A DNA stretch of 64,000 nt. Origin: Patescibacteria group bacterium (GTDB lineage: Bacteria > Patescibacteriota > Patescibacteriia > UBA9934 > GWF2-40-263). Shown here piece by piece: positions 14,846 to 63,381 of this stretch. The stretch covers positions 233 to 64,232 of the forward strand of contig DATDUW010000038.1 in assembly GCA_035290185.1 (NCBI GenBank), given 5' to 3'. The position numbers and the translations under genes are program-made. Each line of letters begins with the position of its first letter. Position 1 is the first letter of the stretch. Below the pieces are notes generated by a model. It searched no databases. It had not been told where the DNA came from and saw only the letters and a program-made list of their open reading frames with translations.

Positions 14846-15289
14846 GTGCCTGATCAATTCGTTGTTCCCCAATTTATCGAGGTTGAAGATAAAATTCTCG
14901 GATCCCTTTCGGTCCGCCAGTTTTTGATTCTTCTGGTGGGCTGTCTGCTCACGGCCGTGCTCTATAAACTTTTGAGTTTTGCTTTTTTCCTCGCAGCGGC
15001 CATTCCCCTTCTGGCGGCCAGCGGTGTCCTTGCTCTTTTGAAAGTGAACGGGATGCCCTTTCATTTTTTTCTTTTAAATCTCCTCCAATCCATGCGTCGG
15101 CCGGCGCGGCGCGTTTGGAACAAGGAATGGACTGAGGAAGAGCTGCGAGCGGCTCTGCAGGAAACTCCCCACGCATCCGCCCCCACGCCTTTTCATAAGA
15201 CCGCGCCCGCAGGCACGCGTCTCCAAGAGCTGGCGCTTGTCGTGAACACCGGCGGTGTCTATCGCCCGGAGGAAGAAACGGAATCTTGA
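14846..15289 (+). CDS. PrgI family protein (VirB3-like T4SS membrane component)
   Basis: GTG start. The N-terminus PDQFVVPQFIEVEDKILGSLSVRQFLILLVG, followed by two hydrophobic helices, is the characteristic PrgI pattern. Confidence 0.8.
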   Translation: MPDQFVVPQFIEVEDKILGSLSVRQFLILLVGCLLTAVLYKLLSFAFFLAAAIPLLAASGVLALLKVNGMPFHFFLLNLLQSMRRPARRVWNKEWTEEELRAALQETPHASAPTPFHKTAPAGTRLQELALVVNTGGVYRPEEETES

Positions 15290-15293
15290 ACCT

Positions 15294-15977
15294 ATGCCAA
15301 AAAAGACGTCTCCTCAAACCGTTGTCCGTCCGCAAACGCAGCGTTATTTGGAAATTGCGGAAATGCGCGACGATGTCGTGACGCTCAAAGATGGAACCAT
15401 TCGGGCTGTTTTAGCGGTTTCGAGTTTGAATTTTGCGTTGAAGTCCGATGAAGAGCAAGAAGCGATCATCCAGGCTTATGTTTCCTTTTTAAACGGGTTG
15501 GAAGAACCGATCCAGATTGTGATTCAATCTCGTAAGATGAACATCGACGGTTATCTTGAAGACTTGGGTATTCAGGAGCGCCGTACGGCCAATCCTCTTT
15601 TGAAATCACAGATGGAAGATTACCGGCAGTTCGTGCAGGAATTGGTGCAGATGGGAGAAATTATGCAGAAGCGTTTTTATCTTGTTGTTCTCCATGAGGA
15701 GGGGGAAAAAAAGAAGCGTAAGTCATTCTGGGTTAGGCTTTCCGAGGCAATTTCGCCGTCCGCGGCCGTGCGTTTGCGCGAAGAGGATTTTCAAGGGCGG
15801 CGCGAGGATTTGTTCAAACGTGTTTCTATCCTCCAATCCCAGTTGGGAAGTATGGGTCTTGGAAGCGCTGTCTTAGACACCCAGGGGCTTATTGAACTGT
15901 TTTACGGCTGCTACAACCCCGATCTTTATGAAACGCAAAAGATGGCGGATCTTTCCAAGGTGCGCCTAGAAACGTGA
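15294..15977 (+). CDS. VirB4 N-terminal-domain-like protein (stand-alone)
   Basis: The ATG lies 4 nt after the PrgI stop. The pattern LEIAEMRDDVVTLKDGTIRAVLAVSSLNFALKSDEEQEAIIQAYVSFLNGL..PIQIVIQS resembles the N-domain logic also seen at the start of the next ORF. Its stop overlaps the next start (GTGA). Confidence 0.5.
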   Translation: MPKKTSPQTVVRPQTQRYLEIAEMRDDVVTLKDGTIRAVLAVSSLNFALKSDEEQEAIIQAYVSFLNGLEEPIQIVIQSRKMNIDGYLEDLGIQERRTANPLLKSQMEDYRQFVQELVQMGEIMQKRFYLVVLHEEGEKKKRKSFWVRLSEAISPSAAVRLREEDFQGRREDLFKRVSILQSQLGSMGLGSAVLDTQGLIELFYGCYNPDLYETQKMADLSKVRLET

Positions 15978-18040
15978 AATCTATGGCTATTGAACAGGAA
16001 GCGTTTGCCGTTTCTTCCAGGGCGTCCGTTCCCGCGGCAACACCCCCTTTAAACCCTGAGATGCGTCGGACGCAGGCGGAGCGTCAAGCTCTCGAAGAGG
16101 AGCGTATTTATCGGCGTGGTGTCGTGACCGTGCGGGATCTCATCTCGCCGGCGGCGTTTGAAGTGAAACCGAGTCATCTTGTCCTTTCTGGCGTCTACGT
16201 CCGGACACTTTTCGTTATTACCTATCCCCGGTATATCGGTTTGGGATGGTCCGCGTCGCTCATCAACCTTAACAAGACACTGGACGTTGCCATGTATTTT
16301 TATCCCGTGAAAGCGAATATTATTCTGAAGCAGCTTCAGAAGCGCGTGGGATATCTTGAAGCCGGCATTGTGGCCGATGCAGAAAAGGGGAAACCGCGGG
16401 ATCCACTGCGGGAAACGGCCTTGCGCGATATCGAGGGCTTGCGCGACGCGCTGACCCAGGGGGTGGAGCATTTTTTTCAGTTTGCTTTTTACATAACGCT
16501 TTTTGCAAAAAGCACCGAAGAGCTCGATAAGCTGACCGAAGAAGTCGAAGCCATGTTTGGGAGCAAGCTTATTTTTTCCAAAAAGGGATTCTATCAGTCC
16601 GAACAAGGTTTCAATTCCACGCTGCCGCTGGCCAACGATCAGCTCATGATTACCTACAACATGAATACATCGCCCATTGCGGCATCGTTCCCCTTCATTT
16701 CTTCCGATCTGACCTCTGATCACGGCATTCTCTACGGCATTAATCGTCACAACAATTCGCTCATTCTTTTTGACCGGTTCAGTCTTCAGAACGCAAATTC
16801 CGTCGTATTTGCCATGGCCGGATCCGGAAAATCTTATGCCGTGAAACTTGAAATTCTGCGTAGTCTGATGATGGGAGTTGATGTGATTGTTATCGATCCG
16901 GAAATGGAATACAAAAATTTATGTGAGGCCGTGGGAGGAACGTATGTGAATGTTTCGCTTGCCAGCCAATCGAAAGTAAATCCATTCGATCTTCCGCGGG
17001 CCAAGGGAGAAGAGGTGCGTACCGAAGACATTATCCGGAGCAGCGTGATTATTCTCAAAGGACTCTTGCGTATCATGATCGGGAAGCCGCAGGGCGGAGT
17101 CGGGGTGGTCGGTTTTACGCCGGAAGAAGATTCCATGTTAGACCGCGCCCTGATTGAGACGTATGCGAAGAAGGATATTACGGCCGATACCGCCGACCTT
17201 TCTGTGGTGGAAACACCCGTTCTTTCAGATTTTCAGGACGTGTTGGAAGGGATCGAGGGAGCCGAAGACCTTGTGGCGCGCCTGCACAAATATACGGAAG
17301 GGACCTTTGCTGGTCTGCTCAATTCTCCTACGACCGTGGAGATGAAGAATCAGCTGGTTGTTTTTTCTGTCCGAGACCTTGAGGATGAATTGCGCCCCAC
17401 GGGCATCTATACGATCGTCAATTATATTTGGAACGTTGTCCGTTCCGAGCGCAAGAAACGCATCCTCGTTATCGATGAAGCCTGGTGGCTCATGCAGTAT
17501 GAGGATTCGGCTAAATTCATCTATGGTCTCGTCAAGCGTTGCCGCAAATACTATCTGGGCGTTACGACGATTACTCAGGACGTCAATGATTTTTTGCGTT
17601 CTCCTTATGGTCAGTCCATTGTCACGAATTCCGCCATTCAGCTTCTGTTGAAGCAGTCTCCAGCCGGTGTTGATATGGTCCAGAAGACGTTTAATCTGAC
17701 GGATGGGGAAAAATATCTCCTGCTTGAGTCAGGACAAGGGGAGGGGCTCTTTTTTGCCGGGCAGAAACATGTGGCCATTAAGGTTGTTGCTTCCTATACG
17801 GAGGACCGGCTAGTGACCTCCAATCCCCAGCAACTTTTGGAAATGGAGCAGGCACAGGAAGAGGTCGAACAGCAGTTAACAGAACAGGAAAAAGAGGAAC
17901 AGACGGAATCGTCCTCAGAAGGGACCGGGGAACAAACCGAACCGTTGACAGGGGCACAGGATGCGGTAGAGGCGTTCCTTTCTTCCGAACAAGCCGGGGA
18001 AGCCGAGGCCCAGCGCATTCGCGGAAATCTTGCAAACTGA
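15974..18040 (+). CDS. virB4: VirB4/TrbE-like T4SS ATPase
   Basis: Walker A is FAMAGSGKSYAVK and Walker B is RILVIDEAWWLM. The N-domain reads YVRTLFVITYPRYIGLGW. The C-terminus is acidic. The start is either the GTG at 15974 or the ATG at 15983. Confidence 0.85.
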   Translation: MKSMAIEQEAFAVSSRASVPAATPPLNPEMRRTQAERQALEEERIYRRGVVTVRDLISPAAFEVKPSHLVLSGVYVRTLFVITYPRYIGLGWSASLINLNKTLDVAMYFYPVKANIILKQLQKRVGYLEAGIVADAEKGKPRDPLRETALRDIEGLRDALTQGVEHFFQFAFYITLFAKSTEELDKLTEEVEAMFGSKLIFSKKGFYQSEQGFNSTLPLANDQLMITYNMNTSPIAASFPFISSDLTSDHGILYGINRHNNSLILFDRFSLQNANSVVFAMAGSGKSYAVKLEILRSLMMGVDVIVIDPEMEYKNLCEAVGGTYVNVSLASQSKVNPFDLPRAKGEEVRTEDIIRSSVIILKGLLRIMIGKPQGGVGVVGFTPEEDSMLDRALIETYAKKDITADTADLSVVETPVLSDFQDVLEGIEGAEDLVARLHKYTEGTFAGLLNSPTTVEMKNQLVVFSVRDLEDELRPTGIYTIVNYIWNVVRSERKKRILVIDEAWWLMQYEDSAKFIYGLVKRCRKYYLGVTTITQDVNDFLRSPYGQSIVTNSAIQLLLKQSPAGVDMVQKTFNLTDGEKYLLLESGQGEGLFFAGQKHVAIKVVASYTEDRLVTSNPQQLLEMEQAQEEVEQQLTEQEKEEQTESSSEGTGEQTEPLTGAQDAVEAFLSSEQAGEAEAQRIRGNLAN

Positions 18041-21328: not shown

Positions 21329-21509
21329 AACACACACTCCGCGCACCCGCGCGGGACGAGAAGGCACACTCAGCGGATCCTCCGCTGGCCCTCGTCCGTT
21401 GGGTGCGCTTTTTTGTTTCTTCGAAAAAATGGAATTAACAAAAACACCGCTGGGCCGCAGCGATGTTTGCAAATAGGAGAGAGGGATTCTCGTCTTCGTC
21501 GAGTAAAAC

Positions 21510-21746
21510 TTACAGAAGATGCCGTTTGGCAAAAGCCCTGCCGGATCCGGTCTTCAAATACTTTTCAAACCGCGCAGCTGCCTCTTTCGTCGGAAATACG
21601 CAATGCCACTTCAAATGAAGGAGGCGACCTTTTGTCATAGGAGTAAGTCCTTGCTCGTGTTCTACCATTCGACGATCAAGATCATGGGTAAGCCCCGTAT
21701 AGTGGAAATCCTTTGTTTCATTTTCCAAAAGGTACACGTAGTACAT
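21510..21746 (-). CDS. small GIY-YIG nuclease-family protein (78 aa)
   Basis: YYVYLL..YTGLTHDLDRRMVEHEQG..EKYLKTGSGRAFAKRHL. GGAGAGG lies upstream. The gene is 111 nt downstream of tRNA-Ser(GCU) on the same strand. Confidence 0.85.
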   Translation of the reverse strand: MYYVYLLENETKDFHYTGLTHDLDRRMVEHEQGLTPMTKGRLLHLKWHCVFPTKEAAARFEKYLKTGSGRAFAKRHLL

Positions 21747-21857
21747 ATCCTCTCCAGGAGATCCGACTCAAAAATATACCTTTTTATGGTATCGTCCTGC
21801 CTTGTTTTTTCGTCTAGTCGTTTACACACCGAAGCCCCATCCTATGGGGCGAAGGTG

Positions 21858-21951
21858 TGGCGGAGAGAGAGGGATTCGAACCCTCGCGCCGGGAAAACCC
21901 CGACCTAGGAGATTAGCAATCTCCCCCCTTCAGCCTCTTGGGTACCTCTCC
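21858..21951 (-). tRNA. tRNA-Ser (anticodon GCU), CCA encoded
   Basis: Hand-folded cloverleaf: acceptor GGAGAGG/TCTCTCC, anticodon arm GGAGA-TTGCTAA-TCTCC, long variable arm, T-arm GAGGG-TTCGAAT-CCCTC, G-CCA. Confidence 0.9.
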
Positions 21952-22099
21952 ATAAATACGGATTCATTTTTTTGGCTTCCCGCATCTTACTCAAATCTTT
22001 CAGATTGAGCAAGGCCGCCTTTTGAGGTATTTTGAGGTTTTCGATTTTTTGGCTGGATGATGGGGAAAGAGATAAAATGAAGTCTATCTTTTCCAAACT

Positions 22100-22531
22100 A
22101 TGCACCACATTGCGATCATGAAAAAATCCTGGGGTCTTATTCCTAAGATTTTGTCCGGAGAAAAGACGGTTGAGTCGCGCTGGTATCAAACCCGGCGTGC
22201 GCCTTGGGATAAGATTCAGGAGGGAGACGTGATTTTTTTCAAGAATTCCGGAGAGCTCGTGACGGCCCAAGCAATGGTTTCTCATGTTTTGCAATTCACG
22301 TTGAATGGTCTTTCGGATGTGCGAGAGATCGTAAAAAAGTATGGAAAGGAGATTTGCCTCCTGAATGCGGATCCGGAAACGTGGGACAGCGTTCCAAAGT
22401 ACTGCATCCTTGTCCGCCTGAAGAATCCGAAGCCCGTAAAGGCGCCATTTGCGATCGACAAAGCCGGTTTCGGGAGTGCCGCGGCATGGATGACGGTTGG
22501 AAATATTCGGGACATTGTTGCTAGCCGATGA
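22100..22531 (+). CDS. ASCH (PUA-like) domain protein
   Basis: IMKKSWGLIPKILSGEKTVESRWY...GDVIFFK is the typical ASCH N-terminal pattern. An alternative start is at 22118. Confidence 0.65.
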   Translation: MHHIAIMKKSWGLIPKILSGEKTVESRWYQTRRAPWDKIQEGDVIFFKNSGELVTAQAMVSHVLQFTLNGLSDVREIVKKYGKEICLLNADPETWDSVPKYCILVRLKNPKPVKAPFAIDKAGFGSAAAWMTVGNIRDIVASR

Positions 22532-22624
22532 ACGTCTCTCAACAGAAAAGATCGTCGGTCTATAGTGAGTGGTGAAGGAAAAACCTGACAAAATCAGGCT
22601 TTTTTGTTACGCTGTGGCCGGTTT

Positions 22625-22712
22625 GGAGAGGTGTCCGAGTGGTTTAAGGAGCCAGTCTTGAAAACTGGTATACCGCAAGGTATCAAGGGTTCGAATCCCT
22701 TTCTCTCCGCCA
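22625..22712 (+). tRNA. tRNA-Ser (anticodon UGA), CCA encoded
   Basis: Acceptor GGAGAGG/TCTCTCC, anticodon arm CCAGT-CTTGAAA-ACTGG, long variable arm, T-arm AAGGG-TTCGAAT-CCCTT, G-CCA. Confidence 0.9.
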
Positions 22713-22803
22713 TCGGTCCGCTGAAGCGGACCTACGACGTGACGAATCCGCATGTGTGGTCCGCGAAAGCGACCGGTGACTCCGTCGTGTATGGTTAAAT
22801 TCT

Positions 22804-23037
22804 ATGCATTATGTCTACAGTTTGAAGTGTCGGGACGGATGGTACATAGGGTGTACAAACGATTTGAAGGACCGACTTCAAAGACATGAAAGAGGAGATG
22901 TTCCGGCGACAAAAGGTCGTCTACCGGTAAAGCTGGAATTTTATTTTGGGATAGAAGATAAAATCAAAGCCTTTCAATTTGAAAAATATCTGAAATCCGG
23001 ATCTGGAAGGGCCTTCATAAACAAGCATTTAGCTTAA
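22804..23037 (+). CDS. small GIY-YIG nuclease-family protein (77 aa)
   Basis: HYVYSL..YIGCTNDLKDRLQRHERG..EKYLKSGSGRAFINKHL. It is a paralogue of 21510..21746 and lies 91 nt downstream of tRNA-Ser(UGA). Confidence 0.85.
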   Translation: MHYVYSLKCRDGWYIGCTNDLKDRLQRHERGDVPATKGRLPVKLEFYFGIEDKIKAFQFEKYLKSGSGRAFINKHLA

Positions 23038-26171: not shown

Positions 26172-26248
26172 GCGCCCGTAGCTCAGTTGGATAGAGCATC
26201 AGCTTGCGGAGCTGAGGGTCGCACGTTCGAATCGTGCCGGGCGCACCA
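26172..26248 (+). tRNA. tRNA-Arg (anticodon GCG), CCA encoded
   Basis: Acceptor GCGCCCG/CGGGCGC, D-arm GCTC-AGTTGGATA-GAGC, anticodon arm TCAGC-TTGCGGA-GCTGA, T-arm GCACG-TTCGAAT-CGTGC, A-CCA. Confidence 0.9.
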
Positions 26249-62779: not shown

Positions 62780-62948
62780 TTTATCCGTTGGATTTTGTGT
62801 TTGTAGAGCGATTTCGTGGTAGGATTTGAACGAAGAAGTTTTAGTCGGGGACAAGATTCTTTTTCAGGACAATAACGATCCGAATCACGCCGTGTGTGTG
62901 AAGGTGGTTGATATTGAAATTGTTCCGACGTTTGATAATTCCCCCTTT

Positions 62949-63011
62949 CGTCATTGCGAGGAGGGGTCCACCTTTGTAAAAGTTGTCGGTGGACGACAAC
63001 AAAGCAATCTC
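62949..63011. repeat. left flank repeats A and B of the GIY-YIG cassette
   Basis: A is CGTCATTGCGAGG (62949-62961). B is GACGACAACAAAGCAATCTC (62992-63011). Their inverted partners lie at 63315-63360. Confidence 0.7.
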
Positions 63012-63015
63012 TTTT

Positions 63016-63306
63016 ATGTCTCGTACTTTCTGGGTTTACATTTTGACCAATCAAACTCATTCTGTTCTTTATACGGGGATGACGGGGAATTTACCGAGGC
63101 GTGTTTACGAGCACAAAGAAAAATTAGTTCCTGGATTTACAGCTAAGTATCAAGCCACGGAGTTGGTTCATGCCGAGCCGTATAATACAGCCACAGAAGC
63201 CATTGCCAGAGAGAAACAGATTAAGGGGGGTTCGCGAGCGAAGAAGATAGTGTTGATTCAAGAAAATAATCCAGAGTGGAAGGATTTATCGTTTGATTTT
63301 GTTTGA
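63016..63306 (+). CDS. GIY-YIG nuclease-family protein (UPF0213-like, 96 aa)
   Basis: FWVYILTNQTHSVLYTGMTGNLPRRVYEHKEK...AIAREKQIKGGSRAKK. Confidence 0.85.
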   Translation: MSRTFWVYILTNQTHSVLYTGMTGNLPRRVYEHKEKLVPGFTAKYQATELVHAEPYNTATEAIAREKQIKGGSRAKKIVLIQENNPEWKDLSFDFV

Positions 63307-63314
63307 AAAGACGA

Positions 63315-63360
63315 GAGATTGCTTCGTCGCCGCAGAGTGACGAGCGTCTTCGCAATGACG
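63315..63360. repeat. right flank repeats B' and A' of the GIY-YIG cassette
   Basis: B' is GAGATTGCTTCGTC (63315-63328), the reverse complement of B minus a 6-nt insert. A' is CTTCGCAATGACG (63348-63360), the reverse complement of A at 12 of 13 positions. Confidence 0.7.
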
Positions 63361-63381
63361 AGTTTTTATAAATAAATTTGT

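Follow-up and report, generated by a model that had tools for sequence, protein, structure and literature searches.

Tyrosine integrases commonly insert at the segment of tRNA and transfer-messenger RNA (tmRNA) genes that runs from the T-loop to the 3' end, leaving direct repeats of that segment. In the islands and prophages formed in this way, an intact tRNA is kept on one side and a repeat of its 3' end is found on the far side; for mycobacteriophage Ms6, attB is reported to lie in the T-loop of a tRNA-Ala gene (PMC1762012). In phage T4, a free-standing GIY-YIG gene of the tRNA gene cluster encodes SegB, which recognises GGTTCRANTCC...CCAR in tRNA genes (a 27-bp site) and makes its cut immediately behind CCAR, with many tRNA genes among its substrates (PMC2330249). 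At the protein level, the best sequence and fold matches to the nucleases described here are the UPF0213 proteins (BH0048, 1ZG2; EF2693, 1YWL) and eukaryotic SLX1, with which they share a minimal core and the lack of a conserved C-terminal Asn. The UPF0213 proteins have been described as mostly vertically inherited and possibly devoted to repair or RNA metabolism (PMC1564403). They have no reported connection with tRNA genes, with hairpins or with mobility. Here we analyse a stretch of 64,000 nt (the window) of contig DATDUW010000038.1, from a Patescibacteria group bacterium (GCA_035290185.1), in which two tRNA-Ser genes are each followed, on their own strand, by a hairpin and a small GIY-YIG gene (genes A and B).

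On balance it seems probable, if far from certain, that each of these sets of tRNA-Ser, hairpin and GIY-YIG gene is a copy of a selfish, promoterless cassette of ~350 bp that resides at tRNA and tmRNA 3' ends and is copied in by repair. The resemblance to SegB is considerable, as in both cases a free-standing GIY-YIG gene lies among tRNA genes, the SegB site corresponds to the tRNA segment that is duplicated in the cassettes, the SegB cut point corresponds to the start of the insert, and the many tRNA genes cut by SegB find a parallel in the broad range of cassette partners. By contrast, SegB is much larger, phage-borne and a member of the classical homing-endonuclease lineage, whereas the cassette proteins have 77-80 amino acids, consist of the catalytic domain only and are chromosomal in many phyla; nor have TTC-bulged hairpins, pairing with the tRNA end or a duplicated tRNA 3' end been reported for SegB. 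The cassette gene adjoins a tRNA or tmRNA gene, and a cleavage target there, such as Seg-type homing genes have beside them, would be suggested by repeats that start at tRNA position 57/58 and by analogy with SegB. Integrase islands share the preference for tRNA and tmRNA 3' ends and the T-loop sublocation, but they are kilobases long and carry a tyrosine or serine integrase, while the cassette has ~350 bp and a non-joining nuclease. The elements mobilised by TnpA (IS200/IS605) and RAYT (REP/REPIN) are likewise small and end in imperfect DNA hairpins, and the way in which IS608 reads its target, by pairing with a guide inside the element, is reminiscent of the pairing with the tRNA end described below. 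These elements depend on HUH (Y1) transposases, make no long duplications and spread genome-wide, unlike the cassettes, in which no HUH protein is present, hairpins are found almost only at tRNA/GIY-YIG loci and the duplication measures 16-21 bp. With DNA transposons the cassette shares terminal inverted repeats and a target-site duplication, but no DDE, HUH, serine or tyrosine recombinase. Integron attC sites, self-cleaving ribozymes, retron-like or reverse-transcriptase routes and REP/RAYT were also considered and rejected, their defining proteins or motifs being absent. The searchable full-text literature, subscription-only titles excluded, contains no description of bacterial tRNA- or tmRNA-linked GIY-YIG genes, of such hairpins or of such duplications, in agreement with the initial annotation, which had taken the module for an undescribed type; among endonucleases, a paper of 2026 about Patescibacteria tRNA introns covers the intron-encoded ones only. 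The cassette family is apparently undescribed, with free-standing GIY-YIG homing genes and tRNA-targeting insertions as its kin, and there is a real chance that its mechanism is new.

A nuclease family behind tRNA and tmRNA genes

A search with protein A retrieved hundreds of relatives of 77-80 amino acids, and a family profile built from 33 diverse members matched 4,888 clusters (at 50% identity) at E<=1e-10 among 1.84 billion representatives. The genomic context was determined in 80 loci, one genome per species, from Patescibacteria, Bacteroidota, Verrucomicrobiota, Acidobacteriota, Proteobacteria, Planctomycetota, Omnitrophota and others, 70 of which are evaluable for an upstream partner. 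A same-strand tRNA ends 35-525 nt upstream (median 110) in 58 of these 70 loci, against 3.5% expected from the local background (P about 1e-72). About half of the partners are Ser tRNAs, the remainder being Glu, Lys, Tyr, Ala, Ile, Met, Arg and others. Eight of the 12 loci without a tRNA have a same-strand tmRNA 89-247 nt upstream, which raises the loci with a tRNA or tmRNA partner to 66 of 70 altogether; the family protein P0053 is tmRNA-linked as well. The view of tRNA, hairpin and GIY-YIG gene as a consistent module, advanced in the initial annotation, is borne out by these figures. Its suggestion of selfish elements homing to tRNA-Ser flanks is favoured here in its selfish part but fails as to Ser, since the 3' ends of many tRNAs and of tmRNA are occupied. 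Given that tmRNA and tRNA have in common only the acceptor, the T-arm and the CCA end, the common denominator is a tRNA-like 3' end. Several truncated contigs begin within the 3' end of a tRNA or tmRNA, and one locus retains just a remnant of a tRNA 3' end.

The polarity of this association is complete. In all the sequence collected, a same-strand member lies downstream of 117 of 164 tRNA or tmRNA genes and none of these genes has a member on the opposite strand only; the sample is enriched by design, an enrichment that leaves the polarity unaffected. This absolute ratio (117:0) is what would be anticipated if the gene were a domesticated housekeeping nuclease of the tRNA operon, co-transcribed with the tRNAs or tmRNA and acting there on RNA or DNA, an explanation that was also raised in the initial annotation and that we consider unlikely, though the foremost rival. 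Such an enzyme might trim a structured 3' trailer that pairs with the CCA end or resolve structures at heavily transcribed tRNA genes, the hairpins might be RNA processing or stabilising signals and, in a sharper version, the tRNA might have been made dependent on the cassette in an addiction-like manner. A host function of this kind also gains from the genes that lie between two tRNAs with gaps of just 5-14 nt, from the maintenance of the family in the tiny genomes of the Candidate Phyla Radiation (CPR), and from a TrmH fusion in the Slx1 lineage that has been read as a hint of RNA metabolism in a 2006 phylogenomic survey from which linkage to tRNA genes is absent (PMC1564403). It is at odds with the fact that most tRNAs of a genome lack the gene, so that a general processing factor cannot be encoded in this way in cis, and with the terminator-like hairpin and T-run that stand between tRNA and gene in Bacteroidota.

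The proteins themselves are single catalytic domains. Pfam PF01541 scores 47.4 (A) and 45.3 bits (B) against a cut-off of 22.6, and Y5, Y16, G18, R26, H30 and E61, which are invariant in the 33 diverse members, make up the GIY-YIG catalytic set including the metal-binding Glu. The AlphaFold2 model (predicted local distance difference test, 95.6) has the order of elements E-E-H-E-H-H and fits the beta-beta-alpha-beta-alpha fold. Foldseek matches it to 1ZG2, SLX1, I-TevI and UvrC, and the profile, searched against the PDB, gives 1ZG2 at 1e-14, 1YWL at 6e-7, SLX1 at 1e-6, I-TevI at 0.009 and UvrC at 0.7; template-modelling scores are 0.58-0.70 to Slx1/UPF0213 structures versus ~0.5 to the UvrC and homing-endonuclease lineages. 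There is no invariant Asn after E61 and no auxiliary domain within the 77-80 amino acids. A conserved C-terminal Asn marks the UvrC+ lineage, and by the criteria of the same survey proteins A and B belong to the stand-alone minimal Slx1/UPF0213 lineage and not to the classical homing-endonuclease lineage (PMC1564403). The cassette subfamily differs from UPF0213 in its own C-terminal motif, FEKYLKTGSGRAF, and in matching no NCBIfam model. In eukaryotes the Slx1 lineage is structure-specific, and SLX1 cuts branched and hairpin-like DNA, substrates that would suit a hairpin-bounded cassette.

Some further loci deserve mention beside this survey. On a Planctomycetia contig (L070 337-800), a different, canonical UPF0213-type GIY-YIG gene (MWYTYILRCKDNSLYTGIT...) begins ~130 nt past a tRNA-Lys(ttt), so that residence behind tRNAs may reach beyond the FEKYLKTGSGRAF subfamily. 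Two haplotypes of the P0111 locus, from one species, encode an identical protein and differ by one synonymous change in the gene. Gene and downstream DNA agree at 97%, starting 12 nt ahead of the ATG, whereas the sequences before that point are unrelated, which counts in favour of the cassette. One of them (L091 2480-3000; also L092, L094 and L096) shows a TTCGC junction behind ...CACCGCC, where no tRNA or tmRNA is called by ARAGORN or by Rfam. Its upstream DNA holds a long inverted repeat (AAAACCAAAAATTTCC...GGAAAGTTTTTGGTTTT) and its spacer a tandem duplication of the hairpin block, and many contigs break ~290 nt upstream of the gene. Two apparent exceptions were discarded: locus L004, seemingly without gene B, has the gene, merely uncalled, and the three downstream contexts of the P0053 loci are a single context with differing gene calls.

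Repeats of the tRNA end and the paired hairpin unit

As marks of insertion, copies of the partner's 3' end are often present behind the nuclease gene. In the genome set, an exact copy of at least 11 nt of the tRNA or tmRNA 3' end is found within 250 nt past the stop in 13 of 65 loci and in 1 of 49 matched controls (Fisher p = 0.003). An independent sample from metagenomes, comprising 45 loci of one clade at 65-100% identity to the protein of locus L025, contains 31 evaluable loci, and 22 of these carry exact repeats of 16-21 nt located 0-74 nt past the stop. The repeats of this clade always match the adjacent tRNA (Glu, Lys or Tyr), and are always immediately preceded by a hairpin unit of the R type (see below). 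For 18 of 21 the first base corresponds to position 57 or 58 of the tRNA. Across the sets they measure 13-21 nt and extend from T-loop position 57/58 to the tRNA 3' end. A clean case is L124, where ...GGGTTCG is followed by AATCCCAGCCGGCTCAC, by TAAC-TTTCGCTAAAGCTACAG-TTAG... and the gene, and then by ...CGAAGCTTTAGCGAAGTGC, a second AATCCCAGCCGGCTCAC and CCAATG. The direct repeats enclose ~350 bp with the GIY-YIG gene and its hairpins, and the cassette ends consist of F- and R-type hairpin units in inverted orientation plus the 16-21-bp duplication, although not all loci show the two together. No integrase gene is present inside the repeats, nor in the annotated neighbourhoods examined.

Repeats of this extent are the customary footprint of integrases, and the genes could be passive cargo or leftovers of integrase-driven islands, that is, a mini-island or a decayed attL end moved in trans. 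The span from the T-loop to the 3' end is the classical integrase sublocation, tmRNA is a classical integrase target too, and the DNA upstream of one tRNA/GIY-YIG locus varies between strains. We nevertheless judge this origin improbable, because the ~350 bp between the repeats hold one 78-residue gene with hairpins and no integrase, because thousands of clusters from different phyla contain this gene family with its hairpins, as would be expected of an active component more than of random cargo, and because viral contigs have next to no members (2 matches in 2.9 million, with no tRNA nearby).

At L025 4940-5340 and L124 1440-1830 the tRNA in use lacks a complete encoded CCA (...CAC followed by TATC and by TAAC, respectively), while the displaced copy downstream retains a CCA-like end (...GGGGTACCA and ...CTCACCCA); the occupied tRNA would therefore need a CCA-adding enzyme after removal of its trailer. 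That an occupied copy often goes without an encoded CCA, and that the hairpin sequesters the tRNA 3' end, would be compatible with a nuclease working for the host on the tRNA. Such a role leaves unexplained why the tRNA 3' end is directly repeated past the gene, and also why there are units with a tRNA 3' fragment alone: eight clade members have hairpin and gene behind a degenerate tRNA 3' fragment without a 5' half, amid ordinary genes. In 10 loci a second, divergent GIY-YIG gene lies ~200-1,000 nt away, beyond the neighbouring tRNA where the layout was checked. A 1.3-kb contig of ~1x coverage (L007 1-1297) joins an AT-rich AdoHcyase gene and the 5' part of a different tRNA-Ser(GCU) to a tRNA 3' part, hairpin and gene A that are identical to those of the window. 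The join falls where tRNA-Ser genes are conserved, and pair 7-66 of the resulting hybrid tRNA is a U-U mismatch; as the contig may be either an assembly chimera or a true junction between genomes, it was dropped as evidence for insertion.

The hairpins next to the tRNA end follow a common plan. The conserved unit has the form X-TTC-(GC-loop-GC, or longer hairpin)-T(T/A)C-X' and occurs in two orientations, named F and R; in nearly all loci ...TTCG(C)... comes directly after the tRNA end and its partner ...CT(T/A)CGG... further on. A search for this architecture gave 54 matches in 697 kb and 1 in shuffled sequence, and 48 of the 52 matches in the fetched loci fall between 600 nt before and 400 nt past a GIY-YIG gene. 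TTCG is found within 10 nt of the tRNA end in 45 of 58 linked tRNAs versus 5 of 49 other tRNAs of the same loci. The outer stem X is formed by the last bases of the tRNA itself, with or without CCA, plus ~3 nt, and X and X' change together: TCCGCC/GGCGGA with Ser, GCCCACC/GGTGGGC with Tyr and Met, and elsewhere CCATCT/AGATGG, CCCTCT/AGAGGG, CACTCC/GGAGTG and TAAC/GTTA. A complement of at least 6 nt to the junction is present in 57% of linked loci, compared with 12% of other tRNAs, 14% of shuffles and 22% of swapped partners. In 49 units picked by the invariant core alone, two-sided changes affect 6 of 6 outer-stem pairs, 93.8% of outer-stem cells are paired versus 22-44% with the partner slid, and 77 cells are compensatory where 20 are expected, a number that 0 of 500 shuffles reach. 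RNAalifold recovered the same unit from 12 tRNA-Ser spacers, including the copy of cassette B, with compensatory changes in the inner helix H1, whose pair counts are underestimates owing to a one-column displacement of H1 in the MAFFT alignment of the Ser-type spacers. Only about three G-U pairs occur in the 49 units, and the sense and antisense strands of the spacers fold equally well, without strand asymmetry. On this Watson-Crick-only pairing and strand symmetry we lean towards a structure that acts at the DNA level; a functional RNA, as the hairpins would be under a role in tRNA processing, would be unusual with near-zero G-U pairs and no asymmetry. Among Rfam 15 models, only tRNAs match the spacers at the gathering score and nothing meaningful appears at E<=10, the sX4 and plastid matches having been rejected as the tRNAs themselves.

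Repeated blocks are visible in several spacers: a ~130-nt block is doubled at L020 4760-5000, a ~21-nt unit is present ~8 times at L048 1010-1200, and hairpin blocks are repeated in L018 and L024. Such tandem arrays may have been left by slippage or by insertions that recurred at these sites. In one genome a tRNA-Ser is followed by the hairpin only, without a gene. At L015, L023, L025, L029 and L124 the open reading frame continues into the R-type hairpin and gives the C-terminal tails ...VALAKD, VALSKD or IALEKD; since these are the translated motif GTAGCTTTAGCGAAGGA, database proteins with such tails represent read-through of a DNA repeat.

If slippage of this sort were the whole story, the gene would be an old, vertically inherited neighbour of tRNAs without mobility, and both the repeats and the hairpin arrays would have arisen by local slippage or duplication at structured flanks. 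We find this very improbable. The tandem duplication of hairpin units in L018, L020, L024, L048 and L091 is in line with it, as are nearest protein neighbours that are mostly of the same phylum and a saturated synonymous divergence, which makes the events old. Slippage would not give a fixed junction, though, in which the repeat starts at 57/58 and abuts an inverted hairpin, nor would close relatives be expected to differ in partner tRNA with the repeat always matching the new partner, and the presence of tmRNA and many tRNAs across phyla would require repeated re-association.

The window locus and its surroundings

The two tRNA genes of the window were correctly placed in the initial annotation, ARAGORN and Rfam agreeing on tRNA-Ser(GCU) at 21858-21951 on the minus strand (RF00005, 51.3 bits) and on tRNA-Ser(UGA) at 22625-22712 on the plus strand (57.4 bits), both with an encoded CCA. 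They are the partners of cassettes A and B, respectively. The hairpins quoted there are also present, at about 21825-21859 (minus) and 22715-22732 (plus), and the two GIY-YIG open reading frames of 77-78 amino acids, described as starting ~90-110 nt past the tRNAs, are upheld by Pfam matches and by spacers of 111 nt (A) and 91 nt (B). As for the stability assigned to the hairpins, the window spacers do have more stable folds than their shuffled versions (z = -2.2 and -3.2), but the description was too generic, as these are copies of the conserved TTC-bulged unit that pairs with the tRNA 3' end. The pattern X5-T[TA]C-closed hairpin-T[TA]C-X'5 has just two matches in the 64-kb window, both in the tRNA-Ser/GIY-YIG spacers.

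In cassette A, the F-type unit CACACC-TTC-GCCCCAT-AGG-ATGGGGC-TTC-GGTGTG (21825-21859, minus; sequence, motif search and minimum-free-energy structure) begins its outer stem with the final two bases (CA) of the CCA of tRNA-Ser(GCU), and its architecture is that of the covariation-supported unit. Gene A (21510-21746, minus) encodes 78 amino acids forming a minimal Slx1/UPF0213-type nuclease domain (PF01541, E 2.4e-12). Behind it, at 21476-21489 (minus), a longest-common-substring search found a partial direct repeat of the tRNA-Ser(GCU) 3' end, GAATCCCTCTCTCC versus GAATCCCTCTCTCTCC in the tRNA, which starts at T-loop position G57, 20 nt past the stop of gene A, and is exact over 13 nt (a 13/14-nt remnant; 0 of 200 shuffles give one equally long). 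We read GAATCCCTCTCTCC as the decayed, displaced original end of tRNA-Ser(GCU), a decay from which the window's own insertions are, to judge by sequence, old. An intrinsic terminator-like hairpin with a T-run, detected by a terminator scan directly past this remnant (21442-21468, minus), is read as the original terminator of the tRNA, now closing the unit of tRNA and GIY-YIG gene. The same scan gave no terminator-like site between tRNA-Ser(GCU) and gene A, an arrangement that would also be proper to an operon in which the nuclease serves the host.

The structured spacer of cassette B (22706-22775, plus) was defined by alignment with 11 related spacers, their RNAalifold consensus and a motif match. 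Here the tRNA end TCCGCC (22706-22711) pairs with GACGTGA (22736-22742) with one mismatch and encloses ATC-H1-TAC, where H1 is GGTCCGC-TGAA-GCGGACC at 22715-22732 (plus). Past this pairing come a copy of the 5' arm of H1 and then GAAAGCGACC, and an inverted unit in R orientation occupies 22718-22772. Gene B (22804-23037, plus; 77 amino acids; PF01541, E 1.1e-11) is 49% identical to A by BLASTP, which agrees with the earlier description of the two as diverged paralogues. In the cluster analysis, gene B is a member of a large tRNA-Ser-linked clade spanning several phyla, with its nearest relative, at 75% identity, in another Patescibacteria genome. No tRNA-end repeat was found behind gene B, where the next gene begins after 10 nt. 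The two modules look independent and their mirror-image layout has no apparent meaning.

Between the two tRNA-Ser genes there is indeed a gene (22100-22531), as first annotated, but its identity as ASCH is unconfirmed, the Pfam match being sub-threshold (E 0.02; 16 bits versus a cut-off of 21.2); it also matches weakly a PHROG of unknown function. Behind the third tRNA of the window (Arg, 26172-26248) there is a plain terminator but no GIY-YIG gene. A third, more distant GIY-YIG gene of canonical UPF0213 type (63016-63306; 96 amino acids) has no tRNA nearby and is bracketed by two nested pairs of inverted repeats (62948-63361), TCGTCATTGCGAGGA / TCTTCGCAATGACGA (15 nt, 93%) and CGACAACAAAGCAATCTCT / AGAGATTGCTTCGTCGCCG (19 nt, 84%), which suggests that other UPF0213 genes may likewise be units bounded by hairpins or terminal inverted repeats. 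No NCBIfam model matched genes A and B, PADLOC gave nothing for any GIY-YIG gene of the window, and PHROGs gave nothing for A and B and a weak match for the third copy (E 0.005). A few kb from the tRNA pair, at 14846-18040, lie genes resembling those of conjugation and type IV secretion (PrgI-like, TraC-like and a TraG P-loop ATPase of 688 amino acids), with no sign of belonging to the cassettes. The window matches metagenome contigs from groundwater samples, and the exact protein carries a Patescibacteria label at its source.

Inheritance, mechanism and meaning

The partner of the nuclease gene changes among close relatives. Among proteins of 74-87% identity the partner is a tRNA for Arg, Lys, Glu or Tyr, a Verrucomicrobia clade has Ile, Ala, Gly and Met as partners, and a Peribacteria clade Ile, Thr, Lys and Ala. 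The largest clade, with 33 members from Patescibacteria, Bacteroidota and others, has a Ser partner in 26, and its cross-phylum identities (65-74%) equal those within phyla. Taken as a whole, inheritance looks largely within-lineage, with partner switches. A housekeeping role leaves this exchange of partners among close relatives unexplained, and together with the tRNA-end repeats and the fragment-only units it favours, at the level of sequence comparison, a selfish cassette over a domesticated gene. A selfish origin and expression borrowed from the tRNA promoter can also be compatible, so that both explanations may hold part of the truth.

In the proposed mechanism, the nuclease would cut the DNA of tRNA-like genes within the segment from the T-arm to the CCA, as SegB does, and the host repair machinery would then copy the cassette into the break. 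The duplicated tRNA end would preserve an intact tRNA and may provide the cassette with a portable homology arm on its right-hand side, giving entry to any genome or tRNA with a similar 3' end. The GIY-YIG gene would have no promoter of its own and be expressed by read-through from that of the tRNA, and the hairpins would be DNA structures recognised or cut by a structure-specific nuclease. A bolder proposal, to which only a rather low probability can be given, is a new class of autonomous minimal mobile element, in which a 78-residue Slx1-like nuclease would recognise its own TTC-bulged DNA hairpins, find its target by pairing of X' with a tRNA-like 3' end and insert at 57/58 with a 16-21-bp duplication.

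Several points weigh against the selfish cassette. Among the loci collected there are no empty and occupied alleles of one site, no search aimed at empty sites having been completed, so that insertion is not directly seen. A catalytic domain of 78 residues without a DNA-binding domain is unlike all characterised homing endonucleases, and sequence-specific cutting by it is hard to picture. GIY-YIG enzymes cut DNA and do not join it. A 16-21-bp duplication at a new type of tRNA exceeds simple homing and would need staggered cuts or another route. Of 59 nearest protein neighbours, 40 come from the same phylum (17 expected) and 31 have the same partner amino acid (13 expected), and selection is strongly purifying, with a median ratio of nonsynonymous to synonymous divergence (dN/dS) of 0.07 at a saturated dS of ~1.4. 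The proteins are working ones, and partner switches need not be recent. Purifying selection and same-phylum neighbours fit a useful host gene too, and strong conservation with invariant catalytic residues is counted on that side. The Slx1 lineage as a whole was also judged mostly vertically inherited (PMC1564403).

A large subfamily thereby gains a testable context, made up of tRNA and tmRNA 3' ends, a candidate hairpin substrate and a defined insertion junction. To our knowledge, stand-alone UPF0213/Slx1-like proteins are among the commonest small bacterial proteins without known function. If the gene proved to be domesticated, it would reveal an unrecognised step in the handling of tRNA 3' ends. 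Programmable targeting is a field in which such co-varying pairing to the tRNA end could attract interest. Should the new class of element be real, it would in effect insert under the guidance of nucleic acid and the direction of structure, by means of a nuclease family with no known role in moving DNA within cells, and would give the UPF0213 family its first biological role. If the selfish origin that we favour is true, the cassettes would rank with the smallest protein-coding mobile units so far known from cells and would account for the way in which contigs break, and strains vary, at tRNA loci in assemblies of CPR and Bacteroidota. They would then constitute a cellular counterpart of SegB and a second, integrase-free use of tRNA genes as safe landing sites.

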